Origin: Fidelibacterota bacterium
GTDB taxonomy: Bacteria; Fidelibacterota; Marinisomatia; Marinisomatales; JACNKV01
Length of the DNA stretch: 64,000 bases
Direction of reading: 5' to 3'
NCBI GenBank assembly: GCA_014381855.1
Contig: JACNKV010000035.1
Span: forward strand, 16,080-80,079
The position numbers and the translations under genes were made by a program. Positions 11,898 to 37,046 of the stretch are shown one piece after another. Every line of letters begins with the position of its first letter. The stretch's first letter is position 1. The notes under the pieces are model-generated. The model was not told the origin of the DNA and searched no databases. It saw only the letters and a program-made list of their open reading frames with translations.

Positions 11898-11926
11898 GAT
11901 ATGTATCTCCGTTAGTGTCTAAATTT

Positions 11927-11948
11927 AGTAACTCATAACAGAGTTAAT
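11927..11948. promoter_or_regulatory. candidate operator, copy A of the palindrome GTAACTC-N6-GAGTTAC
   Basis: AGTAACTCATAACAGAGTTAAT lies in the 60-bp divergent gap between the GH13 lipoprotein (-) and the pullulanase (+). Read on the minus strand it is ATTAACTC-TGTTAT-GAGTTACT followed by AAATTTA, 29 nt before the ATG at 11897. Confidence 0.55.
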
Positions 11949-11957
11949 AAGGAAAAT

Positions 11958-17044: not shown

Positions 17045-17047
17045 TTT

Positions 17048-18859
17048 TTATTCCTCAATATTTACGGTTGTTGAAAGGTGTTTAAACCAAGTGAAATATA
17101 GCGCTACCGACAGTATTACCAGTGTGATGCCAAGCACAGCGACATTGCCCCATGTTTTGAATATCAGACTCATCATGAAAAGGAAGAAAACCACCTGCCA
17201 CGGTACCGCCAGGAATGTTGAAAATATATCCCTGCGGTTTTCAGCATCGATGTCAGCAATATCTTTACTGGATAACTGTGCCTTAAACCTGCCCCATGAC
17301 CCAAACGGTCTTGTATTGCGATAGAAGCGTGAGAGTGTTTCATCATCAGTCGGTTCTGTCAGCAGTGTACCCATTATCGTTCCCATGAGCGAGAACCCGG
17401 TTGCAACGGTGAACATTGTGTATTCAGTAACACCTTCAGGAGCAATTGCCTTGAAAATGATTGCAGAAGCCATCCCTGCAAAAGTACCCCAGACAAACCC
17501 CCAGCCATTCATTCGACTCCAGTACCAACGAAGTAACATTGGAATTAGGAGTCCTGAGCCGATACTCATTGTAATCCAGCCCCAGATAGAATTGATATTT
17601 TTGAAGACCAGCATAAGTCCTAGCCCAGCTAAGACAATCAGAACAGAAGCCATGTAACTATGGAGCATCATTTTCTTTTCCGTAGCTTTAGGATTAATGT
17701 ACAGCTTGTAAATATCTTTCACCCAGTAAGCGGCACCGGCGTTTACAGTCGAGTCAAATGTTGACATTCCGGCTGCCATCAGTCCGGCAATTAAAAAGCC
17801 TTTAATGCCGACGGGCAATGTTTCTACCACGGCTGGCAGAACAAGCTCGGGATCTGTTATTTGTGTTCCCAAGGATATGCCAATAACGGCAATTGCCCCG
17901 ATAAACACCCATCGGAAGGAAAGCAAGAACACCCAAAATGCACTTAACAATCCGGCTTCTCGGTCATCTTTTGCGGCGAAGAAACGCTGAAGCATATAGT
18001 TTCCTGTTCCTCCTGAGCCTTCAAGTATCACCTTCATCAAGTAAAACATAATTGCTACTCCGAATAAATTATAAATGGAATACTGTGAATATTGATCTAT
18101 GGATAGGTTTGATGATGGCCAAATACTCGTCCATTCTTTGAGTGTTGTCGAGAATCGATGAAATCCTCCGCCAGCACTTTCCATCATCGGAAGTGAAATT
18201 GTAAATTCATCCGGAAGTGTAATCCCATACGCTTTTACAGCCATGTATGCAATCGCAGAAAAGATTAGAAAGCCTTGAAATACGTCCGTCCACACAACAC
18301 CGTACAAACCGGAAGCAACGGTATAAATCATGGCAACGGAAATTAACAGCGTGGCTGCCCAGAATTCAGATGGCAGTCCAAGATAATTTTCGATACCAAG
18401 AAATGTGTCCAGGAATTTTCCACCGCCAAGAGCAAAATATGTAACCATCGCAATAGTCATAATGATGGAGGATATCGCCGCCACAAGACGTGCAGCTCGT
18501 CCCTGAGTCTCTTTTCCGAAGCGTAGTTCCATCCATTCGGCTAGAGTCATCGCGCCGGAACGCCGGTTCCATTTCCCCATGTAGATCATAAGAAACGCCA
18601 TGATTAGAGTTACACCGCCGCGGATTTCGATGTAAAATCCCTTGGCACCGAGCGCATAGATCAATGCGGCAATAATCATCGTTCCGCTAATATCCAAATT
18701 AGATGACATTCCGGATGAAGCTAATGCCCACCAAGGAAGGTTGCGGTTGCCTAAAAAATAGGAATCAATTCCGCGTGAAGCTTTCCGTTGCATATATAAT
18801 CCGATAAAGACAATAGCAGTTAAATAAACTCCGATTATGGTAAAATCAATTGGGCTCAT
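17048..18859 (-). CDS. sodium:solute symporter (SSS) family transporter
   Basis: 603 aa and polytopic. N-terminus IIGVYLTAIVFIGLYMQRKASRGIDSYFLGNRNLPWWALASSGMSSNL is typical of the SSS family. It is embedded in the alpha-glucan operon. Confidence 0.85.
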   Translation of the reverse strand: MSPIDFTIIGVYLTAIVFIGLYMQRKASRGIDSYFLGNRNLPWWALASSGMSSNLDISGTMIIAALIYALGAKGFYIEIRGGVTLIMAFLMIYMGKWNRRSGAMTLAEWMELRFGKETQGRAARLVAAISSIIMTIAMVTYFALGGGKFLDTFLGIENYLGLPSEFWAATLLISVAMIYTVASGLYGVVWTDVFQGFLIFSAIAYMAVKAYGITLPDEFTISLPMMESAGGGFHRFSTTLKEWTSIWPSSNLSIDQYSQYSIYNLFGVAIMFYLMKVILEGSGGTGNYMLQRFFAAKDDREAGLLSAFWVFLLSFRWVFIGAIAVIGISLGTQITDPELVLPAVVETLPVGIKGFLIAGLMAAGMSTFDSTVNAGAAYWVKDIYKLYINPKATEKKMMLHSYMASVLIVLAGLGLMLVFKNINSIWGWITMSIGSGLLIPMLLRWYWSRMNGWGFVWGTFAGMASAIIFKAIAPEGVTEYTMFTVATGFSLMGTIMGTLLTEPTDDETLSRFYRNTRPFGSWGRFKAQLSSKDIADIDAENRRDIFSTFLAVPWQVVFFLFMMSLIFKTWGNVAVLGITLVILSVALYFTWFKHLSTTVNIEE

Positions 18860-18914
18860 GATATTTCCTTTTTATTAAGTGTTAGTGTGTTAAAATGTTC
18901 ATGTGTGAAGTGTT

Positions 18915-21900
18915 CTACTTTTTAATTTCTTCTAATATTCCCAGAATTTCTTCCGGTTTATCGACAACGAATTTTGCACCGCTGTTCCATAATTCTTTTT
19001 CACATCGAAACCCCCATTTGACTCCTACAGCCGTCATTCCGGCATTATTTGCCGTTTTCATATCAATATTGGTGTCTCCAATGTACAAACAATCTTCCGG
19101 CTCTGCCCCGAGTCGCTTTGCGATATCCAAAACGCCTGCTGTATCCGGTTTAGGTGGGTATTTTTCATTTACGCCATTTACTTCAAAATCCCATTTTGAC
19201 AAAAATTCAGCATCACATTCTAAGGCAAATTGATGCGGTTTGTTGGTGAAAACTCCAAGTACAATATTACGTTTAGTAAGCTTGTCAAGAAGTTTAGGAA
19301 TCCCGTCATACAATTTTGATTTTGTATTTAAATTGCCTCGATATACAACTTTTAGTTCGGTTAAATATTTTTCTACAGATGCTTTGTCGCGTAATTCTTC
19401 CGGTAATGCTATTTCCATCAAATGTTCAATCCCGCTTCCAACAAAATAACGGTATTGTTCAATAGTGTGCGTAGGTAGTTTATATTTTTTCAGGACTGTA
19501 TTTACCGAATCACCTATATCTTCAAGAGTATTTAGCAGTGTTCCGTCCATATCAAAAATGACGGCTTTTTTTCTCAGCAGGGAATTCACTTGTTTATTAA
19601 TCAACGATTCGATGTTGCCGGTGCCGGAACCACGGAGCGATTTATGAATTGAAGAATAGAGACCATCTGAATCTTGCACAATTCGTATATTCATAAATAC
19701 TTGAGTTTGGTAGCCTTGAAGCTGAATAAATAATCCGTCACGACAAAATTCTGTAGCATGCCGTATGTATTCCAGACCTGAAATCGTATCTGAAAAAATG
19801 ATATAAGTATTTTCATTATTAGGGATGTTTAGTGCTTTATAAATAGATACAGTTTGATTATTATTGGTTTTTGACGGTTCTGATTTATTAATCCAACCAG
19901 CCGTATTTTTGATTGAATTATTGTATATCACTAAGGTAGATGTTTCATGCCGTCTGTTCGAGTAAACAAAAACACTTTCGTCAATGCTTTTATCCTGTTT
20001 TATTAAGGGAAATAAGGAAAAATGATCGACACCTGAAAACAGATGCCGGTGTTTTAATAGTGGAGTGATAATCCGATAATGATGGTCAATAAATCCCTGA
20101 TCAGGATTTTCTTCCCGGTACGCTTTACGAAACTCCATTCCATATTTTTCTTCAAATCCTTCAATTTGACCATGACCAAACATTGGCAATCCGGGCAAGG
20201 TACACATCATGATGGTAACACCAAAATACTTATCCGCTTTTCCAAACTGTGCCACAGCTGTATCTTCATCCGGATTATTTAAGAAGTTAACATAACGTTT
20301 CAGGATTTGCGGGTCATACTCAAGCGTTTTTTTGATTAACTCACGGTATTCTGAATTTCGCTCAATTTTCAGCATATTCATAAAAGCACTGTTATAGACT
20401 CTGTGCATACCCAATGTGCGCACAAAATAACCCTCCATCATCCAAAATGCTTCGGCAAGTAGTAATGTGTCCGGAACTTCCTCAGCGACCCGATCAACAA
20501 CTTCCCTCCAAAATTCTTTTGGAATGGCAGATTGAAAATCACGATCAGACATCGCATACTGCCATCGAGAAGGAATTCCGCCGCCTTCACCAGGTGGAGG
20601 AAACCAAAGTCGCTGAATATGCTTTTTTGCTAGTGTCATGGCGGCATCAAATCGAATAATCTGGAAGGTTTTGGCTATCTTGATAATTGTTTGAATCACA
20701 GTCTCACGTAATTCGGGATTCAGATAATTTAATTGAGCTGTGTCATTCCACGGCATGGATGTTCCGTCATTCCCATGATAGATGTATTTTACATTGCCAT
20801 CTATTTTATCAACCAGTTTAAATGTAACAGCAGCATCGCTGTGATTGAAGTAATGGTCTTCTAAATATACCTCAATTTTATCATGAGAAGAAATATTTTG
20901 ATTTGTATAACGGTAAGAAGGAAACGATGGTTGGTCAGCGGAGATATACCAGTCGGGATGTTTTGCGAGCCAGGGGGAGTCTAATCCAGTGTGGTTTGGT
21001 ACTATATCGCCGGCAAGACGAACCCCCCTTTTTAAGCAACGATCTTTTAAGTTATTCAACGCATCCCATCCACCCAATTCATCAGAAATATCATATTCAC
21101 TCAACGAATAGGCAGAAGCCTCAGCTTCGGAATTGCCCATTATGTTTTTTATGGTTTTTGAAGCTGGGCTGCGTTTCCAAATACCGATTAACCATATTGC
21201 ATTGAATCCAAAATCCACTAATTTTTCTATTTCTTTATCCGGAATATGATCGAGACGAGTAATATTACGGTTGTAAAATTTTGATAGCTGATTCATCCAA
21301 ACAAGAGCATTTTTCGCTATCATAACCACATTAGGCATCCAATCTAAATCATGGCTAAAACCTTCAATGTCATTCAAATTACTAAAGTCGGGTAGCTCCT
21401 GAACACCTGAACCTGTTCCACGGAATTTCATTTCTTCAGCGGATTGATCTAAACCCTGCTTTATTTGAGAGGAAAAATCACCTAAGAATTGAGACCAATT
21501 TTTCAAAATGAACCGCAATTGTTTCTCCAAACTATTTGGATACAAGGAAATTGGCTCATATAAAAAAGCCGGTAAAGTTAAGTCTGTATTTCCAACCGGC
21601 TTCTCACCTTTATAAGTCTTGTTCAACAAATCAATCATCGTTTGAAAATCTTGGTCGTTGCTCCATTCTGTATAGTCAAAAAAGGGATATAATGCTTTTG
21701 AAGCAGGATTAACATTTTCGAGCCAGAGTAAGAGAATGTCTTGTTTGGAAATATGACCTTCAATATTAAATTTAATTTTAATAGGGGATGAGATATTCTG
21801 AAAAATATCTGAAAAGTTATCGATATCTTTATGATAATCGTTGAAAATTCGTTCGACTGCCGTAACAATCAATGAAAACAGCCAAATATCAGATGGAATA

Positions 21901-22043
21901 ATTCCTTCAATTTTATCTTTAACTATCTCGGAGAAGCGGTAATAATCAACGTGAGAGGGGAAAGAAATTTTTCCATGTTCATCGTATTGAAACTTTTCCA
22001 ATCCATACGTTTTACGTTTTTGAGTTATAATATGAAATCCCAT
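18915..22043 (-). CDS. fusion protein: large GH13-like alpha-amylase-family domain plus C-terminal HAD-IA phosphatase domain
   Basis: GH13 regions GDIVPNHTG, IIRFDAAMTLAKKH, LLAEAFW and FLNNPDED. The HAD domain occupies the last ~220 aa (about 18918-19570) with motif I FDMDGTLL, motif II VFTNK, a Lys in PPKPD and motif IV GDTNIDMKTA. No signal peptide, so predicted cytoplasmic. Confidence 0.8.
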   Translation of the reverse strand: MGFHIITQKRKTYGLEKFQYDEHGKISFPSHVDYYRFSEIVKDKIEGIIPSDIWLFSLIVTAVERIFNDYHKDIDNFSDIFQNISSPIKIKFNIEGHISKQDILLLWLENVNPASKALYPFFDYTEWSNDQDFQTMIDLLNKTYKGEKPVGNTDLTLPAFLYEPISLYPNSLEKQLRFILKNWSQFLGDFSSQIKQGLDQSAEEMKFRGTGSGVQELPDFSNLNDIEGFSHDLDWMPNVVMIAKNALVWMNQLSKFYNRNITRLDHIPDKEIEKLVDFGFNAIWLIGIWKRSPASKTIKNIMGNSEAEASAYSLSEYDISDELGGWDALNNLKDRCLKRGVRLAGDIVPNHTGLDSPWLAKHPDWYISADQPSFPSYRYTNQNISSHDKIEVYLEDHYFNHSDAAVTFKLVDKIDGNVKYIYHGNDGTSMPWNDTAQLNYLNPELRETVIQTIIKIAKTFQIIRFDAAMTLAKKHIQRLWFPPPGEGGGIPSRWQYAMSDRDFQSAIPKEFWREVVDRVAEEVPDTLLLAEAFWMMEGYFVRTLGMHRVYNSAFMNMLKIERNSEYRELIKKTLEYDPQILKRYVNFLNNPDEDTAVAQFGKADKYFGVTIMMCTLPGLPMFGHGQIEGFEEKYGMEFRKAYREENPDQGFIDHHYRIITPLLKHRHLFSGVDHFSLFPLIKQDKSIDESVFVYSNRRHETSTLVIYNNSIKNTAGWINKSEPSKTNNNQTVSIYKALNIPNNENTYIIFSDTISGLEYIRHATEFCRDGLFIQLQGYQTQVFMNIRIVQDSDGLYSSIHKSLRGSGTGNIESLINKQVNSLLRKKAVIFDMDGTLLNTLEDIGDSVNTVLKKYKLPTHTIEQYRYFVGSGIEHLMEIALPEELRDKASVEKYLTELKVVYRGNLNTKSKLYDGIPKLLDKLTKRNIVLGVFTNKPHQFALECDAEFLSKWDFEVNGVNEKYPPKPDTAGVLDIAKRLGAEPEDCLYIGDTNIDMKTANNAGMTAVGVKWGFRCEKELWNSGAKFVVDKPEEILGILEEIKK

Positions 22044-22067
22044 AAGGTGATACAGTTCAAATGTTGA

Positions 22068-23744
22068 TCATTTTTTACTATAGTACCGTTCGTTATAATC
22101 TTGAATCATCCTATGCGCTGTGTACTGTACACTTGTTTTGATGGACTCCCGCATGAGGTTTAGCCAAATATCGTGATCGGAATAATAAGCAGGGATGACC
22201 TCCTTCTCAAGCGTGTTGTACAATGATGCGGCATCACGTTCATCATCAGCCTTGTCAGGATTACCAATCGCCCATCCGTTCTCACCATGTCGACAGGCTT
22301 CTGCCCACCAACCATCAAGGATAGACAGGTTCGGAATCCCGTTAAGTGCTGCTTTCATTCCGCTGGTTCCGGACGCTTCATTGGGACGAAGAGGAGTGTT
22401 TACCCAGACATCCACTCCGGAAGTGATAAGTTTCCCGAGCCACATATTGTAATTTTCCAGAAAGACCACTTTAACTTTCCCAAAAAGACGGTTGGCATCT
22501 TCTACAATGTTTTGAATTATCTGCTTTCCTCCTCTGTCATTTGGATGAGCTTTTCCAGCAAACACAATTTGGAGTTTTCCTTCACTAATTTCGATTAATC
22601 GTTCTAAATCATGAAAAATTAATCGAGCTCGTTTGTATTCTGCTGCACGTCTGGCGAATCCGAGGGTGAGCACGTCTTCCGATAAGGCTTTTCCGGTTTG
22701 AGAGTTCGCATATCCTAATAAAAAGTGTTTATGAGATTGATGCATATACAAAAGTTCTTTGTCAGGAATCTCATCTATGTTTAGCAGCTGTTGGGGGTTT
22801 TCTTTCCAGTCGGGAAAATATTTTGTGTATAGTTCTCTGAATTCTTTTCCGACCCAGTATGGATGATATACTCCATTTGTGATTGCACCGATATTAAATT
22901 CAGGAAATTGCTCCTGAGCAACGCCACCGTGAAGCTTAGACACTCCGTTTGCTGACCGACTGAAATACAGTCCTAATTCTGTCATGTGCCAACGACTGTT
23001 TTGTACTAAAGACGGGAGATTTAAATTGTCAGGCAGTAAGTTGTGCAGCAACTTGTCACACCGTTTTTTCGCAAAATGATCGTGACCAGCTTCAACGGGT
23101 GTATGGGTAGTAAAATGACAGTGCTGACGTACGATTTCTTCGTTATTGTTAAATTTATCCAATAAACCTAATGTCAAAAAAGAACAATGTCCCTCATTCA
23201 TGTGATAGGTTTCAATACTTCCGTTTATACCTAACTTTTCAAGTAATTGAATTCCGCCAAAGCCAAGGATTGCTTCCTGAAGTATTCTGTGATCTTTGTC
23301 CCCTGAATAAAGCCGAAGTGTGATGACTCGGTCATCATGGAAATTGTCAGCGACGTCGGTATCAAGAAAATAGATGGGAATTTCATGTCCGGTAATTCCT
23401 TTAAACCTATACTCAAAAGCTTGAATCCACACATCTCTATTTCGTAGTTTGAGCGTGAACATAACCGGAAGTTTTTTCAGCATTGGATATGGGTCGAACC
23501 TTGGAAACGTTTCTGACTGATTTCCTTCTTCATCAATCCGTTGTTTAAAGTATCCTTCTTTATACAATAAGGTAACGGCACACATATTCAATCCGGCATC
23601 TGCAGATGATTTTATGTGATCACCTGCTAATACACCTAATCCGCCGCTATAAGTCGGTAACTGTGATGAAATGCCGATTTCTGCACTAAAATAGGCAATG
23701 GTGAAATCTGTATTTTTTGCGAGACGTGAATCACTGTTTGTCAT
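22068..23744 (-). CDS. glgP: alpha-glucan phosphorylase (GT35, short maltodextrin-phosphorylase type)
   Basis: SGGLGVLAGDHIKSSADAGL N-terminal signature and EASGTSGMKAALNG pyridoxal-phosphate Lys region. Overlaps the malQ stop by 4 nt. Confidence 0.9.
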   Translation of the reverse strand: MTNSDSRLAKNTDFTIAYFSAEIGISSQLPTYSGGLGVLAGDHIKSSADAGLNMCAVTLLYKEGYFKQRIDEEGNQSETFPRFDPYPMLKKLPVMFTLKLRNRDVWIQAFEYRFKGITGHEIPIYFLDTDVADNFHDDRVITLRLYSGDKDHRILQEAILGFGGIQLLEKLGINGSIETYHMNEGHCSFLTLGLLDKFNNNEEIVRQHCHFTTHTPVEAGHDHFAKKRCDKLLHNLLPDNLNLPSLVQNSRWHMTELGLYFSRSANGVSKLHGGVAQEQFPEFNIGAITNGVYHPYWVGKEFRELYTKYFPDWKENPQQLLNIDEIPDKELLYMHQSHKHFLLGYANSQTGKALSEDVLTLGFARRAAEYKRARLIFHDLERLIEISEGKLQIVFAGKAHPNDRGGKQIIQNIVEDANRLFGKVKVVFLENYNMWLGKLITSGVDVWVNTPLRPNEASGTSGMKAALNGIPNLSILDGWWAEACRHGENGWAIGNPDKADDERDAASLYNTLEKEVIPAYYSDHDIWLNLMRESIKTSVQYTAHRMIQDYNERYYSKK

Positions 23745-25255
23745 TTTGTCCTGTTATATTTATTGGTTAGGTGTTTTAAACGGGTAATCATTTTGTCTGA
23801 GAGCATATCCCATGTGAATCTCCATGTCCAATTTCCATTGGCTGTCCCCGGGATGTTCATTCGTGCCTTTGAATCAAGACCCATTACATCTTGTAAAGGA
23901 ATAATGGTCGTGTTGGCAGGTGTCTGTAACGCAAGATCAATCATATCCCAATGAATTTCAGAACCGTCTGTCTCAAAATACTCCAATACGTTTTTTCTTT
24001 CAGCAGAAATTTCATCTTCTGTTTGGGCTCGTCCCTGTCCTGAGTGCATTGTAAACCAGCCCTTGGTGGTGTCATTATCGTGAGTTCCAGTGTAAACGAC
24101 GCAGGATTTAGGATAATCCATTGGGTCTTCATTTTCTCCAAAGGCAAACTGTAGAATCTTTAATCCTGGGAATTCAAATATTTTACGAACAGGCTCGGCC
24201 TCTTTTGATGCTTCACCCAAATCTTCAGCAATGATGGGCAACGGACCTAATTCTTGAGTGATAACGTTGAAAAAGTCTTCACCAGGACCTTGTATCCAGC
24301 GACCATTTTTTGCATTTTTTGAATTCGCTGGGACTTCCCAATATTTTACAAATCCATTAAAATGATCAATGCGGACTATATCGACCATTGTAAACAATTT
24401 TTTTATCTGAGATACCCACCATTTGTATCTGGTCTTTTTGTGAACATCCCAGTTGTAGATTGGATTTCCCCAAAGCTGCCCGGTTTCACTAAAATAACAC
24501 GGTGGGGCTCCAGATAGTCTGTCCATTTTTCCATCACAATCAAGATGGAACAATGATTGATTTGCCCAGACATCCACACTGTCATAGGCAACGTAAATCG
24601 GAATATCCCCAATGATTCGCACATTACGTTTGTGGGCATAATCGATTAAACTATGCCATTGATCATGAAAAAGGAACTGAAGAATTTTTACTTTTAGTAT
24701 GTCAGATTTATATTTTTCTGCGATTTCAGATAATGCATCAGGATTTCTATGTTTATACTCCCATTTCCAGTCAGCCCAAGCTTGGTTATTATGTAATTCT
24801 TTTAAAGTGATAAACAGGGCAAAATCATCTAACCACACACTATTTGTCGAACAAAATTCACGGAAATTTTCGATGAACTCTTTAGAAGCTCGGGACTGAA
24901 AATTTTCCGCCACGATATTTAATATAGATGAGCGTAAAGAAAATACGGAATTGGAGTCTATATGGATTTCGGAGAGAGTATTTAAGGTTTGTACTTCACT
25001 TGTTTTTAGATATCCATTTTTAATGAGCAACTCAAAGCTGATAAGTAAAGGATTACCTGCAAATGATGAAAGTGATTGATATGGTGAGGCACTAAGGCCT
25101 GTAGGACCAATGGGAAGAATTTGCCATAAATGCTGCCCCATTGTTTTTAATCGGTCAATGAATGTATAGGCATGCGGACCAATTTCTCCGATTCCGTATT
25201 GCCCGGGAAGAGATGTAATATGCAGTAAAATACCGCTTGAACGATGGAATACCAT
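23741..25255 (-). CDS. malQ: 4-alpha-glucanotransferase (amylomaltase, GH77)
   Basis: SSGILLHITSLPGQYGIGEIG start, VRIDHFNGF, IAEDLG and GTHDNDT motifs. Length is 504 aa. Confidence 0.92.
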   Translation of the reverse strand: MVFHRSSGILLHITSLPGQYGIGEIGPHAYTFIDRLKTMGQHLWQILPIGPTGLSASPYQSLSSFAGNPLLISFELLIKNGYLKTSEVQTLNTLSEIHIDSNSVFSLRSSILNIVAENFQSRASKEFIENFREFCSTNSVWLDDFALFITLKELHNNQAWADWKWEYKHRNPDALSEIAEKYKSDILKVKILQFLFHDQWHSLIDYAHKRNVRIIGDIPIYVAYDSVDVWANQSLFHLDCDGKMDRLSGAPPCYFSETGQLWGNPIYNWDVHKKTRYKWWVSQIKKLFTMVDIVRIDHFNGFVKYWEVPANSKNAKNGRWIQGPGEDFFNVITQELGPLPIIAEDLGEASKEAEPVRKIFEFPGLKILQFAFGENEDPMDYPKSCVVYTGTHDNDTTKGWFTMHSGQGRAQTEDEISAERKNVLEYFETDGSEIHWDMIDLALQTPANTTIIPLQDVMGLDSKARMNIPGTANGNWTWRFTWDMLSDKMITRLKHLTNKYNRTK

Positions 25256-25286
25256 TTGAAAAATGCTTTCTAATAAAGAAGGTTAA

Positions 25287-25487
25287 TTATTCTGTTTTAT
25301 TTAATAGTGAAATAAAATCTAATTCGAGAGTTTGGATTTTACCATCTACATCCTCACGATATAACGTCAATTTAGTGTCAGGATTTTCTGCAACTGTCCA
25401 TTCGATTTCATTTAAAATGACAGAATCGCCAACCGCAATGGATTTGATTTCTGGTTTTGTTCCTGTGTCCAAGTTTATTATCTTCAT
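25287..25487 (-). CDS. small acidic hypothetical protein (66 aa from the ATG; the ORF track gives 72 aa from a TTG)
   Basis: The ATG at 25487 is preceded by an AGGAG RBS. The gene lies between the TrmB-like regulator and malQ on the same strand. I recognise no family. Confidence 0.5.
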   Translation of the reverse strand: MKIINLDTGTKPEIKSIAVGDSVILNEIEWTVAENPDTKLTLYREDVDGKIQTLELDFISLLNKTE

Positions 25488-25501: not shown

Positions 25502-26311
25502 TCAAATGTCTGCCAATAAACTGTCTAAACGAATATCCGGTCTCCGCATAATTTTTTTCACAATCGGATTCGGGTCAAAATCTAACCTTTGTCCGGCTAG
25601 GGTGATGTCAAGGATGATATGATTTGTAGCAATTTCAGTGATTGCTTTATTTTTTGTAAATATCGTTCTGCTGTCATTATGTTCAACCGTGCTACCCATT
25701 ATCGTCGTGGTTTGGTCGGCAACTAAAATAATTTTTGGATTCCATACTTTTAAAAGATCGACTTCATCTAAACTATAACTGACGGTTGTCCCAATATCTT
25801 CTTTAAGTTTGCAGAAAGAAAATAGCGTAATATCAACATCTCTATTCACAGCATCTTTTAATTCTCTTCCCAACGTAGTAACTTCTTGTCGCCATGCGCT
25901 TAGGATAATTTTACCTTGAGCATGATTAATAATTTCTTTCGCTTTCATGATTAGGTTACGATACCCGTGTAGGTGCCAAAAATCGAAGGCTTCTTCACTG
26001 GTGTTTAAATGGTCAAAAGCCTCGGTAATTTGTTGTACACGGTCTATATGTAAATTATTCATGTGTTCAATCATTGAAGAAGGCGATAGAGCGATATATT
26101 TTTTTGGATTTTCTCCCACAGAATTTATCAAACCTAAGGCCGTTAAGCGATTCAGTACGGAGTAAATAGCCGATCGTGGAACCCCGGAATATGTGCTGAT
26201 TTCATATCCGGTTGCCGGATTATTTTTCAGTAAAGCCAAATATGCCTTACCGGCATTGGAGGGAAGTCCAAATTCCGCAAGTAAATCAATAATTGTTTTT
26301 TCAGTATTCAT
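25502..26311 (-). CDS. TrmB-family sugar-responsive transcriptional regulator
   Basis: N-terminal winged HTH LLAEFGLPSNAGKAYLALLKNNPATGYEISTYSGVPRSAIYSVLNRLTALGLI, followed by a C-terminal TrmB-type sensing domain of appropriate length. It heads the minus-strand malQ-glgP operon. Confidence 0.82.
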   Translation of the reverse strand: MNTEKTIIDLLAEFGLPSNAGKAYLALLKNNPATGYEISTYSGVPRSAIYSVLNRLTALGLINSVGENPKKYIALSPSSMIEHMNNLHIDRVQQITEAFDHLNTSEEAFDFWHLHGYRNLIMKAKEIINHAQGKIILSAWRQEVTTLGRELKDAVNRDVDITLFSFCKLKEDIGTTVSYSLDEVDLLKVWNPKIILVADQTTTIMGSTVEHNDSRTIFTKNKAITEIATNHIILDITLAGQRLDFDPNPIVKKIMRRPDIRLDSLLADI

Positions 26312-26360: not shown

Positions 26361-26386
26361 TGCAATATTTACTCTAATATCCCAAC

Positions 26387-26408
26387 CGTAACTCACAACA
26401 GAGTTACT
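26387..26408. promoter_or_regulatory. candidate operator, copy B of the palindrome GTAACTC-N6-GAGTTAC
   Basis: CGTAACTC-ACAACA-GAGTTACT followed by AAATTTA, 25 nt before the ATG at 26434. It lies in the gap between the TrmB-like gene (-) and the GH13/receptor operon (+). Confidence 0.6.
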
Positions 26409-26433
26409 AAATTTAATAGAATTTGCCAATTGG

Positions 26434-28299
26434 ATGAAACAAATTAAATTAATAATTAAAGTCCTGCTATTAATCGTAGTTATTGAATCAAACCTCTTCG
26501 GTAACGTACTTCCCGATTGGGCGACGGATGCTGTGTGGTATCAGATATTTCCTGAGAGGTTTAATAATGGAGATCACGCAAACGATCCAACGTTAGCAAG
26601 TACCGTAGGAACATGGCCTTGGCAACATTCTGAGACGTGGAACGTATCACCGTGGACATCTGATTGGTACACCTTTCAGCAATGGGAGGTAGAAAATGGG
26701 AAAGATTTTCGGTACCAATTCCAGCTCCGGCGATACGGAGGTGATTTACAGGGGATCATTGAAAAATTGGATTATCTCCAAGAGTTAGGTGTCAATGCGA
26801 TTTATTTAAATCCGGTATTTGATTCGCCTTCATCTCATAAATACGGAGCGGCAACCTATCATCATATTGATCGACATTTTGGCCCGGACCCTGAAGGTGA
26901 TACCAACATTATTCAATCAGAAAGTCCAAATGACCCATCAACCTGGAAATGGACTTCAGCTGATAAATTATTTCTGCAGCTCGTCGAAGAGGTGCATCGC
27001 CGGGAAATGCATATCATTATAGATGGTGTATTTAATCATGCAGGATTAACATTTTGGGCATTTCAAGATGTCATAGAGAATCGGGAAAAAAGTTCGTACT
27101 ATCATTGGTACTCCATTGATGGAAATGGAATGGAAGACCATTCACATTTGAATGATTATAGAGACTTGCCATCTCAATTTAATCCGGATGGATATCCTCC
27201 TTTACGATATAAAGGGTACGTAGAAGATCTTCCTGCTTTTCGTCAGAACGAAGACGGTCCGGTTAAACCTGTTCGTGAGCACTTTAAGGAAATTGTTCGT
27301 CGTTGGATGGATCCGAACAATGATGGAGATACTTCTGATGGTATTGATGGATGGCGTTTAGATGTCGCCGAACGAATACAAATGTCGTTTTGGGATGAAT
27401 TTTGCGGCTGGGTGAAAGTGATAAACCCGAATGCATACATTACCGGGGAAGTCTGGTGGGAAGACTGGTGGAATAACAAACAATTTAATGCGTCTCCTTG
27501 GCTGAAAGACGGTCGTTTTGATGCCGTGATGAATTATCGATTTGGTGATGCAATGTTCAAGTATTTTATTGACCGGAAAAACCAGATTACTCCATTTGAA
27601 CTGGATATATTGCTTCAACAGGTCAGGGATGAATATCCCCCAAATACGGCTTACGTCTTGCAAAATTGTCTTGGAAGCCATGACATGGAAAGACTTGCCT
27701 CAGCGGTTGTAAATCCAGACAGATTGATAGACCATGCAAACAATACATGGTGGAATAAGGAATTTGACATCCGAAAGCCAAACTCCAAGCAGCAACAGAT
27801 TCAAAAGACAATCATTCTGTTTCAGTTTTCGTATTTGGGAGCACCCTATATCTATTATGGAGATGAAGTAGGAATGTGGGGAGCAGATGACCCGGATTGT
27901 CGCAAACCCATGGTGTGGTCTGAATTTTCTTATGAAAATGAAACCGCACATCCTTGCGACTATTTGGCATGTATTGAAACTAGGCCTGAAGATCGTGTGA
28001 TGGTTGACAAAGATTTATGGAAATATTATCATGATTTGATTGACCTTCGCCATAAACATCCATCCTTGAGACGAGGGAATTACAAGACAGTTTATACAAA
28101 TAGTGAAGGTCTCTTCGTCTTTCAGAGACAGCAGGATAATGAAATAATTATATGCGCATTTAATGGCTCAAACATTCAACAAACAATCCCAAATATTGTT
28201 TTTGAGGGCAAATTTGAAAATTGGTCCATGATATTTGGGGATGATTTTAATAAACAACTTCAAGCAAAATCAGGAAAACTATTTAAAAAGAAATTATGA
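26434..28299 (+). CDS. secreted GH13 enzyme (neopullulanase/cyclomaltodextrinase-like)
   Basis: Signal peptide present. AVWYQIFPERFNNGD, GGDLQGIIEKLDYLQELGVNAIYLNPVF, IIDGVFNHAG, GWRLDVAERI, TGEVWWED and LGSHDMER motifs. Confidence 0.9.
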   Translation: MKQIKLIIKVLLLIVVIESNLFGNVLPDWATDAVWYQIFPERFNNGDHANDPTLASTVGTWPWQHSETWNVSPWTSDWYTFQQWEVENGKDFRYQFQLRRYGGDLQGIIEKLDYLQELGVNAIYLNPVFDSPSSHKYGAATYHHIDRHFGPDPEGDTNIIQSESPNDPSTWKWTSADKLFLQLVEEVHRREMHIIIDGVFNHAGLTFWAFQDVIENREKSSYYHWYSIDGNGMEDHSHLNDYRDLPSQFNPDGYPPLRYKGYVEDLPAFRQNEDGPVKPVREHFKEIVRRWMDPNNDGDTSDGIDGWRLDVAERIQMSFWDEFCGWVKVINPNAYITGEVWWEDWWNNKQFNASPWLKDGRFDAVMNYRFGDAMFKYFIDRKNQITPFELDILLQQVRDEYPPNTAYVLQNCLGSHDMERLASAVVNPDRLIDHANNTWWNKEFDIRKPNSKQQQIQKTIILFQFSYLGAPYIYYGDEVGMWGADDPDCRKPMVWSEFSYENETAHPCDYLACIETRPEDRVMVDKDLWKYYHDLIDLRHKHPSLRRGNYKTVYTNSEGLFVFQRQQDNEIIICAFNGSNIQQTIPNIVFEGKFENWSMIFGDDFNKQLQAKSGKLFKKKL

Positions 28300-31200
28300 A
28301 GAATATAACGAAACTTATTTTAATGTTATCCATTATGTTGATTTCTAGCATATATGCAGGAACAACAGGAAAAATTTCCGGAACGGTAAAAGACAAAAAA
28401 ACAGGTGAATTCTTGGTTGGGTGTAATATAATGATTGATGGAACCAGTTTGGGAGCAGCAACTGATATCCATGGTAATTATTATATCTTAAATGTCCCTC
28501 CGGGGAAATATACAGTTCGTTCAATGATGATTGGATTTACTACGGTACGAATGACCGAAGTTGATGTTGCAGTAGATTTGACAACACGCATTAATTTTTC
28601 AATGAGTATGGAAGCCATTGAAGGAGAAGAGGTTGTGGTTGTGGCGAAAAGGCAAACCGTTCGGTTGGATCAGACATCCATGGCTTCGATAATGGATGCA
28701 AAAACATTAGAAAATCTTCCTGTGGCAGAAGTAATCGATGCAATTAGTCTCCAAGCCGGAATTGTACGGGACGGAGGTGGTTTACACGTCCGGGGAGGTA
28801 GAAGCGGTGAAGTCTCATTTTGGGTGGACGGTATCTCAACAACAGATTCTTACGATGGAAGTAGTGTCGGAGAAGAGATTCAAAATAGTTCTATACAAGA
28901 GCTTCAGGTTATCAGTGGAACTTTTAATGCGGAATATGGAAATGCAATGTCCGGCATTGTCAACATTGTTACAAAAGATGGGCAGGATCATTTAGAAGGT
29001 GGCTTGGAAATATATGGGGGTGGGTTTCATACGTTAAAATCAGATATATACACGATCTCGTCACCTTTTTCGATTTGGAAATCTTATGAAGACTTAAATG
29101 GAGATGGTCAATGGGATAGCCCTGAATGGTTTAATGATTTGAACGGAAATCTACAATGGGATTATAATGAACCTTATGATGATGCTAATGAGAATGGGAT
29201 ATTTGATGCAGGTGAACCCCTTAATAATGATTTAGGAACGGATGGTCTTGCCGGTGATCCAATGGATAATGGTTCAATGATTCCTTCATATTTTAGCAAT
29301 AATAACGGGCAAAAGAACGAACCCAGTTTAGGTGAAGGAGACGGACAACCTCAGTGGGGAGAACATCGTTTTTCGTTAGATAATGATGGGTTTGTGGATA
29401 AATTAAATGTAGTGCTGAATCCGTTTCAAATAAAAAACATCAATGCCCATTTGAGTGGGCCGGTTCCTTTTCTAAATGATTGGGTTACGTTTTACACAAA
29501 TATTCGTTACTTTAATACAACAAATAAGTACTATGGTAAACGACTATTCCAATCAAATGGTATGATGTTTGGAGATCAAAAGATTGTACCATTAGCACCG
29601 TTCTCAAAATTAACCGCTCAATTTAAATTTACTATAAAACCAACCCCAAAAATGAAGTTTGCTTACAGCTCTTTCAGCGCAGAAAAACAATATAAAAATT
29701 ATGATGCTGACTACAAATATATTCCGGATGGTTTGATGAATCGATATGAAAAAGATTTGTCTCATATCCTTACTTTCACGCATAGTATCTCATCAAAAAC
29801 CTTTTATGAATTAAAATTTATTGATTTTTCATCTGCTTACTGGGAACATCTTTACAAAGATGTCAACAACGTACCGTTTGAATCACAGATTATGGATAAT
29901 TTGTCTTGGCAAGCTGATTCAATTCAGATATACAATGGAGTAGAATGGGAAACTATTCCACAATATTATGAGGTGGGTACCTACCAAACTCAGGACTCAA
30001 CTTGGCATTACATAGTTGTAGATCTTGATGATTCAGAAGGCTATGTTGATCCGGTTATTATGAACCGACCGGCTTGGTCATTTGCGTCAGGAGGAACTCA
30101 AGGAGGTCGTTACGAACGAGAAACAAACTATCGTATGTTAAAATTTGATATTTCCAGTCAAATCAATTCTGTTCATCAAGTAAAAACCGGTTTTGCTTTC
30201 AAACGATATGACCTTTGGGCAAATGATAAACACGTAGAATATCTGATGGAAGGAAGTTACGGATTTACAGCGGAAGGAGATACGATTGGTTACAACCCTA
30301 TTTCAGGATCAAAAATCTTTCCTTATACACCAACAATTTATCCAACGTATACATCAGCACACAGCTATTTTCGTACAAATCCAATTGAGTTTTCTGCCTA
30401 TGTTCAGGATAAATTAGAGCTTGAGGATTTGATAGTAAATTTTGGTCTGCGATTTGATTATTTTGATCCGGATTGGGTTGTTCCCACAGATGACCGATTC
30501 CCGGGGAACCGTAAGTATTATTTAGCAGAGACCGCCAATGATACAGTTGTATTTTATCAATATGATTACCCGGAGCTTCATTCAGGTGTCGTTTTAATTG
30601 ATTCGTTAACGGCAGAAGGTGCCGTGAAAGCACAAAATCTACTAACCTCAGGAATGAATGAAGATTCGTTATGGACAGCCATGCGTGAGGATTATCAATG
30701 GAAGAACGGATATAAACCTGCTTGCAAATCATACCAACTTAGTCCTAGAATAGGATTGTCATACCCTGTTTCTGATAAAGGAGCAATTCATGTATCTTAT
30801 GGCTATTTTTTCCAGATTCCTAATTTCTCATATTTGTATTCAAACCCGGAATTTGAAATAGGGGAATCCAATTTTGCAGGAATTCTTGGGAATGCATCGC
30901 TAAAACCAGAGCGAACAGTGATGTATGAAGTTGGGTTTAAACAAGAAATAGCCATGTTGACATCTTTTGATCTTACTCTTTTCTACAGAGATACAAGAGA
31001 CTGGGTTGGAATGAGTGCTCCAATTCGTAAATATCCTGTAGGAACGTATTTTAAATATGAGAATAAAGACTATGCAAATACCCGTGGATATACTATTGCA
31101 ATTAATCGAGCATTTTATAATGGCTTAGGAGCCTCATTAGATTATTCTTGGATGGTTGCGGAAGGGACATACTCTAACCCGGACGATGCCTATCATAGCG

Positions 31201-31688
31201 CACAATCTGACCAAGAACCTTTACAGAGTTTAATTCCATTGGATTGGGATCAAACCCATACTCTAAATGGATCAATTACTTATGGAAAAAGAAATTGGTC
31301 TGTCTCAATGATTGGAAAATTATGGAGCGGCACTCCATATACACCGGAATTTAAAGTAGGTTCAGTCTCCGGTTCGAGTGCCTTTGCCGGGTTCTCAGAG
31401 AATAGTGATAGAATTCCAAATTATTATGAATTGGATTTTCGTTCTTCATATCGTTTAAATCTATTTGGCTTACATACAACACTGTTTTGTAACATATATA
31501 ATTTGTTGGATATTCAAAATGAACGTACAGTTTGGGGAGATACCGGCAGAGGAACCTATACACTTACCGCAAAAGATACACCAGACGCTACAACGGATCG
31601 TATTGGGCACATAGATGAGCACCTATTAAAACCTGATTGGTTTTCTGATCCACGTAAAATTAATGTAGGCATCCATGTCAAATTCTAG
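28296..31688 (+). CDS. TonB-dependent receptor (SusC-like architecture) with an Asp-rich insertion
   Basis: Signal peptide and carboxypeptidase-regulatory-like N-domain (GKISGTVKDKKTGEFLVGCNIMIDGTSLGAATDIHGNYYILNVPPGKYTV). Plug region LHVRGGRSGEVSFWVDGI. Long barrel ending GIHVKF. Its start overlaps the GH13 stop (ATGA). Confidence 0.88.
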   Translation: MKNITKLILMLSIMLISSIYAGTTGKISGTVKDKKTGEFLVGCNIMIDGTSLGAATDIHGNYYILNVPPGKYTVRSMMIGFTTVRMTEVDVAVDLTTRINFSMSMEAIEGEEVVVVAKRQTVRLDQTSMASIMDAKTLENLPVAEVIDAISLQAGIVRDGGGLHVRGGRSGEVSFWVDGISTTDSYDGSSVGEEIQNSSIQELQVISGTFNAEYGNAMSGIVNIVTKDGQDHLEGGLEIYGGGFHTLKSDIYTISSPFSIWKSYEDLNGDGQWDSPEWFNDLNGNLQWDYNEPYDDANENGIFDAGEPLNNDLGTDGLAGDPMDNGSMIPSYFSNNNGQKNEPSLGEGDGQPQWGEHRFSLDNDGFVDKLNVVLNPFQIKNINAHLSGPVPFLNDWVTFYTNIRYFNTTNKYYGKRLFQSNGMMFGDQKIVPLAPFSKLTAQFKFTIKPTPKMKFAYSSFSAEKQYKNYDADYKYIPDGLMNRYEKDLSHILTFTHSISSKTFYELKFIDFSSAYWEHLYKDVNNVPFESQIMDNLSWQADSIQIYNGVEWETIPQYYEVGTYQTQDSTWHYIVVDLDDSEGYVDPVIMNRPAWSFASGGTQGGRYERETNYRMLKFDISSQINSVHQVKTGFAFKRYDLWANDKHVEYLMEGSYGFTAEGDTIGYNPISGSKIFPYTPTIYPTYTSAHSYFRTNPIEFSAYVQDKLELEDLIVNFGLRFDYFDPDWVVPTDDRFPGNRKYYLAETANDTVVFYQYDYPELHSGVVLIDSLTAEGAVKAQNLLTSGMNEDSLWTAMREDYQWKNGYKPACKSYQLSPRIGLSYPVSDKGAIHVSYGYFFQIPNFSYLYSNPEFEIGESNFAGILGNASLKPERTVMYEVGFKQEIAMLTSFDLTLFYRDTRDWVGMSAPIRKYPVGTYFKYENKDYANTRGYTIAINRAFYNGLGASLDYSWMVAEGTYSNPDDAYHSAQSDQEPLQSLIPLDWDQTHTLNGSITYGKRNWSVSMIGKLWSGTPYTPEFKVGSVSGSSAFAGFSENSDRIPNYYELDFRSSYRLNLFGLHTTLFCNIYNLLDIQNERTVWGDTGRGTYTLTAKDTPDATTDRIGHIDEHLLKPDWFSDPRKINVGIHVKF

Positions 31689-34600
31689 AAATAAGTTGGG
31701 AAACATTATGAAAATAAACTCGTCATTTAATCATATACTTTTTATCGGGATTATGATTGTTAATACATCTCTAATGGCCGTCAATCCGCATGGTACAACG
31801 TTAGCAAGAGGAAAAAATGTACACTCCGGGAATAAGGTGAGAACAACTTTTTACAATTATGGTTTATTAGGGCGATGGATGGATGAGCCGGATGATATAG
31901 GAGGTGAATGGCCAATTAATTCTACTCATGAATATATTGGAGACGTTGGAATATTGGTAGGATCTGAAATTATGGATCAAAATGATGTACTACGTCACAG
32001 TGTCGTTACTACTTATAGTCCCCGCGGAAGTGAAATGAATTTAGATGATCACTGGGGCTGGGAACCACTCATGGGGTATTTCAATGATGATTCCAACTTG
32101 GTGGCGATGAGTCACATGGGTCCTCCGGTAGATCCCTCAAATCCAAGGCATCCGAATACTTGGCCAAATCAATGGCCGGACAAGCTTACCGATGCACTAG
32201 ATCCAGGTTGGTCCGAAAGTTGGAATGGCTATTTTGGAAAAAATCAAAAAAATGCGGAACAGGAAAGTTACTTTATCATGGATGATGCCAATGATGAGGA
32301 ATTTAGTTTTTTCCCGGATACTACAGATATGGAACGAAAAGGACTTGGTTTGAATGCAACAGTCCGAGGATTACAATGGAATCATATCATGGCAGAGGAC
32401 GTGCTTTTTTGGCTTTATGATATAAAAAATATTGGACATAAAGATCATCATAAGATGATTTTTGGAGCTATTGTAGGCACGATAACAGGTGGGGATGGAG
32501 ACAGCCAGGATGATTATGCGGATTTTGATAAAAATGACGATATTGCGTATTCCTATGACCATGGGACAAATCTTGACACTGGACTAGGTGGTGTTGGTGC
32601 ACAGGGTTGGTCTCCGGTAGGTTTAGCGGGTTATGCCTTTCTTGAAAGTCCGGGGAATTCGATAGACGGGATTGACAACGATGGCGATGGTAGTGATGGC
32701 TCAGGAGAGATTATCACAGAAAGTTTATTTGACCCGGTGATATTTTCTGTCGGTGATACAATTGTAGTAATAGATTATTATAATGGTTATGAGAGAACCA
32801 TTACAACAATGCCTGCAAACGGAATTGAAATCGTTCAAAACGGAAATATTTATACATTTGTTCCGGGGATTCCCTATGAAGAAATTGAACGAAATTTGAT
32901 TGATGATAACCTAAATGGTATTATTGACGAAAACAACGGCTATTCCATAGAGGTTGCTCCTGGTTATTTTGAAGATATATATTTGAATGTTGGGCAAAAA
33001 TACATTGATTATTTAACTAATGAAGGAATAGATAATCTGCTGATTGATGAGTCACGGAGTGATGGTATTGATAATGACGGTGACTGGGATTTTGAAAAGG
33101 ACGATGTAGGTCTAGACGGTGCTCCCGGAAGCGGAGACACATTTTATGGCGAAGGTGATGGACAGCCGACATCCGGCTTTGAGTTGATGGGTGATGAATG
33201 GGTGGATACAGGATTCCCGGGTGAACCAAATATTGATAAAACAGATATTGATGAGTCTGATCAGATAGGACTATCAAGTTTTTACTATTTTGCTTTTGGT
33301 CAGTTTTCAGATATGGGATGTGATGATTGTCTATGGAATAAAATGGCCCCGGGATATTTTAATAAGTCTGTGCAAAATGTTGATGCTGACTTTCTTTTCG
33401 GATCCGGGTATTTCCCGTTACCGGTGGGCGAAACAGAACGCTTTTCTATAGCCATGTTATTTGGTGATAATCTCCCTGATCTAATCAGAAACAAACAAAC
33501 CGTACAGACAATCTATAATCAGAATTATAATTTTGCAAAAGCACCAGATTTACCGACAGTTTGGGCTTTTGAAGGAGACGGATATATCACAATTTATTGG
33601 GATGACCGTTCTGAAAATTCATATGATAGACTGTCCGGCTATGATTTTGAAGGATACAAAATATATAAAGCAACCGATACCGAATTTACGGATTCCGGGA
33701 GCATTACGGATGCCTTTGGATCGCATAAATTTAATGTGGCGGAAAAGCAGTTCGACTTAGTCAATGAATATGAAGGGTTTTTTCCGATTGATATAGATGG
33801 GATTCTTTACGATCTAGGAGATAATTCAGGACTTGTTCATGCATGGACAGATACAAATGTGTTAAATGGCCATCGTTACTATTATGCTGTTACTGCATAC
33901 GACCATGGAAATTTAGATAAAGAGATACTCCCGGCTGAAACATCCAAATTTGTTACTATTGATAAAAGCGGTAAAATTCAAACTGCTCAAAATGTTATTT
34001 CAATAGTTCCTGAAGCCCACGCCGCAGGATATGTTATCCCTCCTGCAAATGAGGAAGTATATCCCTTGCACAAACCCAGAGGAACTGGTAGTATTGTTTT
34101 GAATAATATTGATCCCTCCCAAATACCTGAAAACCACAACTATCAAATTTATTTTAAAGATTCAAGATTGAATGGATTGGATGATGATGGCGATTGGGTT
34201 CAAGTGGATGATAGTTACGCGAATAATCGATGGGATTCAACGGAAGTCTATTTTGATTTTGGGCTCGATGGTTTACCGAATACGGAAGACGAAGGTGAGG
34301 GAAATGGTGAAATTGATTGGTTGGATTATGGTGTTGATGGAACGCGAAATCAAGATGAACCGGGATTTAATCCGTGGAATAACCCGGACCCAAGTCATGA
34401 TAATTACGTAGACTCCGGGGCAAATGAAAATTGCTCTGACGGTTGGGATAATGACGGAGATGGAGAAATTGACGAATTAGAAAATGGTGAGTGCGCTGAT
34501 TGGGGCACAGAAAATGATGGAATATATCAACTTGCAGAACTTGGTGAACCTATTATTGACGGAAATGCACTTTTTGACAAGGATGTTGGTAGCGATGGTT

Positions 34601-36950: not shown

Positions 36951-37019
36951 TTTATTTTATCACGATAAGAATTATTATTGTAGAATTCCCGAATAAAGAG
37001 TAAATTTCCTGCACTTATT

Positions 37020-37041
37020 AGTAACTCTGATGTGAGTTACT
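37020..37041. promoter_or_regulatory. candidate operator, copy C of the palindrome GTAACTC-N6-GAGTTAC
   Basis: AGTAACTC-TGATGT-GAGTTACT is a perfect 8+8 inverted repeat followed by AAAATTA. It lies 70 nt upstream of the ATG at 37112. Confidence 0.6.
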
Positions 37042-37046
37042 AAAAT

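Follow-up and report, generated by a model that had tools for sequence, protein, structure and literature searches.

The 64,000-nucleotide stretch of contig JACNKV010000035.1 from a Fidelibacterota bacterium that is analysed here (hereafter, the window) contains, between 7.2 and 51.6 kb, one large alpha-glucan utilisation region recognizable from the Pfam assignments of its proteins. Three intergenic positions within this region carry copies of the same 20-bp palindrome, which is the predicted operator of a TrmB-like regulator encoded in the locus.

The gene for the regulator, a 269-aa protein identified by Pfam, by a match in the Protein Data Bank (PDB) and by an AlphaFold2 (AF2) model, occupies positions 25502..26311 of the minus strand. 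Divergent from it is a plus-strand unit (26434..36950) in which overlapping or abutting genes encode the glycoside hydrolase GH13_B, a TonB-dependent receptor, a 1410-aa protein and a PorV-like protein; the next gene on this strand (37112..40357) encodes a surface protein with several carbohydrate-binding modules (X25/CBM48/CBM20) and a signal of the type IX secretion system (T9SS). The genes 3' of trmB, at 13982..25487 of the minus strand, encode a 66-aa small open reading frame (sORF) product, GH77, a phosphorylase-like protein, a GH13-HAD protein, an SSF transporter and a GH13-CBM53-T9SS protein. The remaining two units diverge from each other: GH13_A, which has a CBM48-like module, together with a CotH-T9SS protein on the minus strand (7207..11897), and a GH13/CBM48 gene, GlgB- or pullulanase-like by Pfam and sequence, on the plus strand (11958..13979). 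Gene assignments other than that of trmB are from Pfam.

Scans of the window found neither a terminator-like site nor a further operator between trmB and GH77, so that the minus-strand string would be driven from the trmB promoter; the short intergenic gaps indicate that the genes at 13982..25487 are probably co-transcribed with trmB. The TrmB-like protein is the only regulator that the Pfam scan detects among the proteins of the locus, in agreement with an earlier note made from the DNA letters alone, and the same scan found no gene for a SusR-like, hybrid two-component or extracytoplasmic function (ECF) sigma factor protein among them.

Three copies of a palindrome in the alpha-glucan locus

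Exact matches to TAACTC-N6-GAGTTA occur in the window at 11929-46, 26389-406 and 37022-39 (copies A, B and C, respectively) and nowhere else, whereas 100 dinucleotide-preserving shuffles of the window give 0.00 matches on average. Allowing up to two mismatches in the window scan adds no match beyond these three. Under a 26-nt weight matrix built from related sites, copies A, B and C score 30.0, 31.8 and 35.5 bits, respectively, and the next-best position in the window scores 6.4 bits, the distribution of scores across the 64 kb being bimodal. The likeness among the three copies ends at the ~26 bp of the motif.

Copy A (11925..11950, core 11928-11947) reads on the minus strand ATTAACTC-TGTTAT-GAGTTACT-AAATTTA and lies 27-29 nt upstream of the GH13_A-CotH unit, with the ATG at 11897 located 29 nt downstream. 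It sits in a divergent gap of 60 nt and is at the same time directly upstream of the GH13/CBM48 gene and its AAGGA Shine-Dalgarno sequence: the ATG at 11958 is 7 nt from the end of the matrix match and 11 nt from the TAACTC-N6-GAGTTA core. Copy B (26385..26410, with the core GTAACTCACAACAGAGTTAC at 26388-26407) reads CGTAACTC-ACAACA-GAGTTACT-AAATTTA and occupies the gap that separates the divergent start codons of trmB (26311, minus strand) and GH13_B (26434, plus strand), 23-25 nt upstream of the GH13_B unit, the GH13_B start codon being 25 nt downstream. Copy C (37018..37043) reads AGTAACTC-TGATGT-GAGTTACT-AAAATTA and is a perfect palindrome with 10-bp arms, TTAGTAACTC-N6-GAGTTACTAA; it is separated by 67 nt from the PorV-like stop codon on one side and by 68 nt from the gene for the multi-CBM surface protein on the other, and the ATG of the latter gene (37112) follows at 70 nt. 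The earlier note had given these three copies with the same sequences, coordinates and distances to the start codons (29, 25 and 70 nt), and the intergenic position of all three is borne out.

The comparison of related sites yields the refined consensus ttaGTAACTCA-N4-TGAGTTACtaa. The half-sites are indeed conserved, as first noted, and the 6-nt spacer is not entirely free: its first and last positions are constrained (A/T), so that the half-site comprises 8 bp (GTAACTCA), with a free spacer of 4 nt and a weak outer TTA flank. The number of transcription units had also been taken to be three. Because two of the three sites lie in divergent gaps, there are five, and the sites are placed so that they could serve all the contiguous alpha-glucan genes between 7.2 and 40.4 kb.

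Conservation in Marinimicrobia and in other phyla

A search of a genome collection with the TrmB protein yielded 37 trmB loci, at 51-90% identity plus one match at 32%. The records that are named to a taxon are nearly all metagenome-assembled genomes (MAGs) of Marinimicrobia (Neomarinimicrobiota/Fidelibacterota); a partial match (L033) is in a Dehalococcoidia record. The exact motif is present in 25 of the 37 loci, almost always ~80-120 nt 5' of trmB, and a site of at least 12 bits lies within ~260 nt upstream of trmB in 35 of the 36 loci that include the 5' flank of this gene. The site orthologous to copy B is kept in the same gap in ~30 genome loci. A motif equally common in coding or unrelated regions would, by the earlier note, have spoken against an operator. 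Within the DNA available, the 642 kb of window and loci, 92% of which is coding by the ORF calls, the matrix gives 59 hits that reach 12 bits, and every one of them is intergenic. The comparative footprinting that the note had proposed also favours an operator: when the GH13_B-trmB gaps are anchored on the site, no other block in them comes close to it in conservation.

Sites equivalent to the other two copies recur as well. Counterparts of copy A are found 5' of GH13/CBM48 homologues in L035, L058 and L124, and counterparts of copy C follow the PorV-like gene in L014, L028, L030, L031, L042 and L064 as well as in L081, L101, L102, L112, L115 and L141. Further conserved classes of sites lie between the trmB stop codon and GH77 or a gene for a 700-aa protein, and upstream of the TonB receptor gene.

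Many divergent gaps of Marinimicrobia contain two operators ~125-150 bp apart, one near the structural gene and the other near trmB (L024, L026, L038, L054, L058, L062, L066, L070, L072, L102, L111 and L130); in such loci, a third operator often follows trmB. In the window, the trmB gap contains one site only. Nearly identical operator regions are found on two contigs of one MAG, CAVQSL01 (L037, 2986-3011, and L014, 9914-9939); L037 holds only a degraded trmB, the match at 32%, which points either to a duplication in the assembly or to a paralogue that has decayed.

A scan of a metagenome collection with the DNA pattern TAGTNACTCWNNNNWGAGTTACTA alone, a pattern that favours sites outside the trmB-GH13 gap, returned 112 loci. 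A homologue of some gene of the alpha-glucan locus lies within 1.5 kb of the site in 68 of these, and a TrmB homologue in 51. The GC content is at least 0.5 in 41 of the 112 loci and ~0.63 or more in about 25, a composition at which the AT-rich pattern is expected ~0.3-1.4 times per 10^12 bases. On the high-GC contigs, for which ORFs were called with a filter on GC at third codon positions (GC3), 13 loci have the site beside distant TrmB homologues (28-39% identity), and the neighbours of the sites include genes for GH13, GH13-HAD, phosphorylase-like, CBM20 and CBM48 proteins and for a sugar-binding protein. About 20 low-GC hits have no informative context, and some of these could be due to chance because a low GC content alone predicts ~80-100 occurrences per 10^12 bases.

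The palindrome is also found beside genes for phosphofructokinase (PFK), a DeoC/LacD-type aldolase and an Edd/IlvD dehydratase (L044, position 10688; L136, 1214; L047, 1744; L060, 974; L053, 61). These sites next to central sugar genes, which belong to other lineages, hint that the regulon may extend more widely through sugar metabolism, as reported for archaeal TrmB/TrmBL1.

A profile of the distant homologues recovers a family of ~270-aa proteins from MAGs of Myxococcota, Polyangia, Delta- and Alphaproteobacteria and Pseudomonadota. For nine trmB loci with GC content of 0.64-0.73 that were chosen by protein and not by motif, a site of at least 13 bits is present directly upstream of trmB or its operon in seven, and these sites are the only ACTC-N6-GAGT cores in each of the loci of 13-21 kb. 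In several of the protein-selected loci, the genes 3' of trmB encode alpha-amylases, a LamB porin or a sugar ABC transporter, and in L153 a glgB-like gene is preceded, at a distance of 38 nt, by a second site. The motif is therefore real, as far as computation reaches, and is found beside this regulator family in Marinimicrobia and in other phyla.

The same comparisons bear on two explanations that do not involve a DNA operator. Repetition alone would also be displayed by a chance repeat or by a remnant of a mobile or repetitive extragenic palindromic (REP)-like element; given 0.00 expected copies, a likeness restricted to ~26 bp and orthologous positions conserved across phyla, this origin retains a vanishingly small probability, and we regard it as refuted by the comparative data. 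The other explanation is that the palindrome functions as an RNA hairpin, that is, a terminator, an attenuator or a stem-loop in the 5' untranslated region. The palindromes do fold, at -6.4 to -12.4 kcal/mol (-12.4 for copy C), and copy C, with a stop codon 67 nt before it and T-rich DNA after it, is the only one that a simple scan flags as terminator-like. However, among 167 distinct sites, only 21 of the 211 departures from the consensus in the eight core pairs are compensated, and changes so seldom compensated mean that the sequence rather than the pairing is conserved, which argues against an RNA hairpin. Furthermore, the stems are AT-rich and have no adjacent U-run, the equivalents of copy C elsewhere keep the sequence, and the sites occur in both orientations relative to genes. 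Copies A and B cannot terminate transcription because they lie between divergent start codons, and the Rfam scan of the window found nothing at the three sites. An intrinsic terminator or other RNA hairpin is thus rejected on covariation and position, and we consider it highly improbable.

The regulator and its archaeal relatives

The regulator consists of a winged helix-turn-helix (wHTH) domain, a linker helix and a C-terminal domain similar to phospholipase D (PLD). The N-terminal TrmB-type wHTH is matched by PF01978 at residues 11-77 (E 1.1e-17, 64.1 bits against a cut-off of 25.6), and phmmer aligns the protein to PDB 3QPH residues 8-164 (E 3.2e-9). The AF2 model, which has a predicted local distance difference test (pLDDT) score of 84, finds its best full-length fold match in the 260-aa TrmBL2 and the next in TrmB (3QPH). 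The C-terminal domain of the model has a PLD/Nuc-like fold and corresponds to the beginning of 2F5T, the sugar-binding domain structure; out of the 233 residues of that chain, the alignment extends over 132 columns only. Likewise, the effector-binding domain PF11495 is matched at 27.5 bits (cut-off 22.2) over profile positions 2-111 of 233 only, and the protein terminates ~50 residues past the matched half.

The C-terminal sugar-binding subdomain of the Pyrococcus TrmB (2F5T) is absent from the regulator. Therefore, maltose or maltodextrin sensing cannot be transferred from the Pyrococcus protein, which has 338 aa, including that subdomain, compared with the 269 aa of the regulator. The defining N-terminal features of the TrmB family are present, the sugar-binding subdomain is lacking, and the architecture is that of TrmBL2. 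Several residues of the C-terminal domain, three tryptophans among them, nevertheless do not vary between phyla; speculatively, these residues are compatible with a surface for a ligand or a partner.

Two associations of trmB with other genes bear on the signal that it might receive. The 66-aa ORF (25287-25487, minus strand), which has its own Shine-Dalgarno sequence and lies between the stop codon of trmB and the start of GH77, is kept directly 3' of trmB in ten related loci (L001-L004, L008, L009, L015, L017, L034 and L052) and is preceded by an operator copy in L003, L004 and L008; its product might be a partner of the regulator. In two alphaproteobacterial MAGs, tandem operators with starts 27 bp apart (L150, 9279-9331; L156, 4224-4276) precede an operon of the composition orf219-trmB-Ser/Thr protein kinase-GH13(-GH13-LamB-GH13), and the kinase gene adjoining trmB suggests phosphorylation-based control.

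All homologues linked to a site, even those with as little as 28% overall identity, have the HTH segment TGYE..SG(I/V)PRSA(I/V)Y unchanged. Within it, Y50, which all of 36 homologues and the cross-phylum alignment retain without exception, aligns with Tyr50 of the Pyrococcus TrmB, a residue that contacts DNA (PMC4158304). An invariant recognition helix together with an invariant ACTC/GAGT core is the pattern expected of a cognate pair.

It could be argued that another transcription factor, encoded elsewhere, binds the palindrome and that trmB is simply a member of its regulon, given that two of the nine protein-selected loci of other phyla have no site and that many of the metagenome hits are on contigs too short to show a regulator. 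We find this quite unlikely: TrmB is the sole regulator in the locus, the site keeps its place at trmB in several phyla although the genes around the two differ, invariance of the recognition helix coincides with that of the motif, and the core is similar to a TrmB motif that was derived by experiment (PMC2710871).

The latter motif is the cis-element of the Halobacterium salinarum TrmB (VNG1451C), reported as TACT-N7-8-GAGTA (PMC2710871). When it is read as TACTC-N6-GAGTA, which is our own reading, the ACTC-N6-GAGT core and the spacing are the same as in the window; the likeness holds only under this palindromic reading. The Halobacterium half-site is TACTC, compared with TAACTC here, where there is an extra A. 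Both proteins are winged-HTH regulators of the TrmB family with a role in sugar metabolism. The Halobacterium TrmB is an archaeal protein that acts at TBP/TFB-dependent promoters, is a global regulator of 113 promoters and both activates and represses (PMC2710871); it is also reported to retain the sugar-binding residues, in contrast to the regulator here, from which the respective subdomain is missing.

The TrmB proteins of Pyrococcus furiosus and Thermococcus litoralis agree with the proposed reading in other respects: they are encoded in alpha-glucoside clusters and repress from a palindromic operator on the core promoter, and the N-terminal domain of 3QPH is homologous to that of the regulator, with Tyr50 conserved. 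Their trehalose/maltose operator, TACT-N3-AGTA, has half-site centres 7 bp apart as opposed to 12 bp here, and the recognition helix is IPYNRVYD in Pyrococcus, compared with VPRSAIYS. The earlier note had drawn a weak archaeal parallel with TACT-N3-AGTA; the parallel is better drawn with the Halobacterium element.

TrmBL2 (PDB 5BPD/5BOX), the best full-length structural match, shares the plan of wHTH, helix and PLD-like domain at a length of ~260 aa. Its targets are 'coding and intergenic regions' (PMC4158304), unlike the sharply defined and exclusively intergenic palindrome described here. The Thermococcales glycolytic motif (TGM; TATCAC-N5-GTGATA) of TrmBL1/Tgr is similarly an inverted repeat near sugar-catabolic promoters that is bound by a TrmB-family dimer, and its position relative to the promoter sets the sign of regulation (PMC4158304); it differs from the operator here in its unrelated sequence, 5-nt spacer and archaeal promoter context. 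The operator matches neither TACT-N3-AGTA nor TATCAC-N5-GTGATA.

Among bacteria, TonB-receptor-based outer-membrane alpha-glucan loci of Bacteroidota, which belong to the FCB (Fibrobacterota-Chlorobiota-Bacteroidota) group, are controlled by SusR and similar regulators of polysaccharide utilization loci. The regulator family differs between these starch loci and the locus in the window. In the literature that we searched, we found neither a full-length bacterial TrmB-like regulator whose operator had been characterised nor any account of regulation in Marinimicrobia, and the motif strings occur there only in primers and unrelated matches. One paper on a bacterial protein was found, that on MmtA1 (bioRxiv 2025.04.03.647061), an HTH-only protein with a different motif.

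These relationships permit a broader scenario, which we consider possible although doubtful. The ~270-aa bacterial TrmB-like clade might be an ancient cross-phylum sugar regulator that has the ACTC-N6-GAGT core in common with the haloarchaeal TrmB, has acquired new means of signal sensing and, in some lineages, also controls glycolytic genes (PFK, aldolase, Edd). The sensing routes may include the Trp-rich PLD-like domain, the 66-aa sORF product in Marinimicrobia and the Ser/Thr kinase in Alphaproteobacteria. If true, this scenario would imply a regulator-operator pair that is conserved across the bacteria-archaea divide.

Promoter context, mode of regulation and implications

The median distance between the end of a site and the closest start codon is 42 nt; it is 3-47 nt for structural genes and 58-96 nt for trmB, and, at such short distances, many of the structural genes have no room for a promoter 3' of the site. 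In the window, an A/T box that resembles a -10 element, TAAATT / TTTAAT (26408..26417, plus strand), abuts copy B on the GH13_B side, and equivalents are seen at copies A (TAAATT, 11927-11922, minus strand) and C (TAAAAT, 37041-37046, plus strand); all were read from the sequence, and their promoter function is putative. On the trmB side, a -10-like TATTAG (26374..26379, minus strand) lies 8 nt past the operator core; if it is the -10 element of trmB, the operator would cover the -35 region and the spacer of the trmB promoter. Both flanks are conserved in orthologous gaps, the first as TtAAAt and the second as a block 'aATATTAg' or 'TATATT' at 8-14 nt from the operator.

The earlier note had likened a TAAAWTTA element abutting the right half-site to the '-7 box' of FCB-group promoters. 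This identification is rejected: the exact box is present at only 10 of 115 oriented sites, all in the source genome and its closest relatives, and its CTAA belongs to the palindrome. What stands is a looser association, with TAnnnT abutting the operator at 32 of the 69 Marinimicrobia sites that face structural genes, compared with 6 of the 46 that face trmB.

For some organisms of the protein-selected set, the rules of promoter structure are known. In one alphaproteobacterial locus (L150), the site is embedded in a canonical sigma-70 promoter of the form TTGACC-17-TAGAGT, the -10 element of which is the operator's own half-site; shuffles contain 0.0 such promoters. By our own reading, L156 has the same layout with TTGATC, and in L151 and L158 a TTGACG hexamer lies 10 nt upstream of the site. 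Since the sites overlap or adjoin likely core promoter elements, the regulator probably represses by occluding promoters, its own among them.

We consider it likely, with good though not full confidence, that the three palindromes are promoter-blocking operators of the TrmB-like wHTH regulator of the locus. A dimer would place its two recognition helices (..SGVPRSAIYSVLNRL..) on the 8-bp half-sites GTAACTCA / TGAGTTAC, the centres of which are 12 bp apart, and, once bound, would block RNA polymerase at the likely core promoter elements. In this manner, the five transcription units between 7.2 and 40.4 kb would be repressed, including, via copy B, the operon of the regulator itself (autoregulation), and a signal derived from alpha-glucan would be expected to release the protein from the DNA. 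Physical binding, repression as opposed to activation and the nature of the inducer are all what we infer from sequence. The proposal of the earlier note, a shared operator for a dimeric HTH protein, the TrmB-like regulator, over core promoters, is in this sense supported in silico by the sites upstream of trmB (35 of 36 loci), the intergenic location of the hits (59 of 59), the TrmB and alpha-glucan genes that the DNA-pattern scan of metagenomes recovered, the protein-selected loci (7 of 9) and the invariant helix.

An alternative that accepts the site as that of the TrmB-like protein holds that the protein activates, or has a dual role, at some or all promoters. Dual repressor and activator behaviour is documented for the archaeal TrmBL1/Tgr (PMC4158304) and for the Halobacterium TrmB (PMC2710871), the trmB-side site, with its distance of 58-96 nt from the start codon, could be in an upstream activator position, and the PFK, aldolase and Edd neighbours in high-GC contigs suggest a global regulator. 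However, with structural-gene sites only 3-47 nt from the start there is no space for a downstream promoter, the site of L150 contains the -10 element of a canonical promoter, and the TTGACG hexamers of L151 and L158 lie 10 nt upstream of theirs. On balance, an activating or dual role is unlikely.

Several observations weigh against occlusion by the TrmB-like repressor, whether on its binding, its mode of action or its signal. The matrix was trained on the loci that it scores, which makes the scores circular, although not the locations. Two of the nine protein-selected loci from other phyla (L152 and L157) have no site. The PDB title of TrmBL2 presents this closest structural match as a chromatin protein with a novel DNA-binding mode, and the TrmBL2-like short architecture of the regulator, devoid of the sugar-binding subdomain, leaves sugar sensing in doubt. 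The overlap with promoters would follow from -10-like boxes and short distances rather than from established promoter rules of the Marinimicrobia. Finally, archaeal TrmB-family proteins can activate as well (PMC4158304), which makes repression less certain, especially at the trmB promoter, where the site is 58-96 nt from the start.

The predicted regulon appears not to include the last GH13 gene of the region (47382-51632, minus strand), the product of which is a giant protein of 1416 aa with CBM48, X25 and SusE-F-like modules and a T9SS tail: no operator is found 5' of it, the best score in the 528-nt gap 51633-52160 being -3.2 bits. The 1410-aa protein (31675-35907, plus strand) has no Pfam match and is kept between the TonB-dependent receptor and the PorV-like gene, a position conserved in many Marinimicrobia loci (e.g., L056, L064, L101, L102, L118, L119 and L126); it may stand in for the surface components of the SusD/E/F type, which the locus lacks. 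The CotH protein (7207-9534, minus strand) has a kinase domain, a lamin-tail domain and a T9SS sorting signal and is apparently co-transcribed with GH13, an unusual partner for an amylase. Outside the alpha-glucan region, the only Rfam match in the window is a tRNA-Sec gene at 6979-7070 on the plus strand (RF01852, 65.6 bits, E 4e-11), which implies the use of selenoproteins by this Marinimicrobia genome.

The mechanism proposed here, an autoregulated palindromic operator over a promoter, is ordinary and belongs to the textbook. What appears to be new is the predicted cognate operator for a little-studied bacterial branch of TrmB, conserved, as the in silico evidence supports, from Marinimicrobia to Proteobacteria and Myxococcota. 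Work on the TrmB family has to date concerned Archaea almost exclusively, and our searches brought up no characterised full-length bacterial example; for such bacterial regulators, the consensus given here seems to be the first to describe an operator. Since the motif recurs in MAGs of Proteobacteria and Myxococcota, it could be used to predict regulons from metagenomes. For the Marinimicrobia (SAR406), which are abundant and uncultured and whose regulation of carbon use is little known, it defines a concrete, testable regulon for an outer-membrane alpha-glucan system that would comprise five units, with a TonB receptor, T9SS enzymes and a binding protein.

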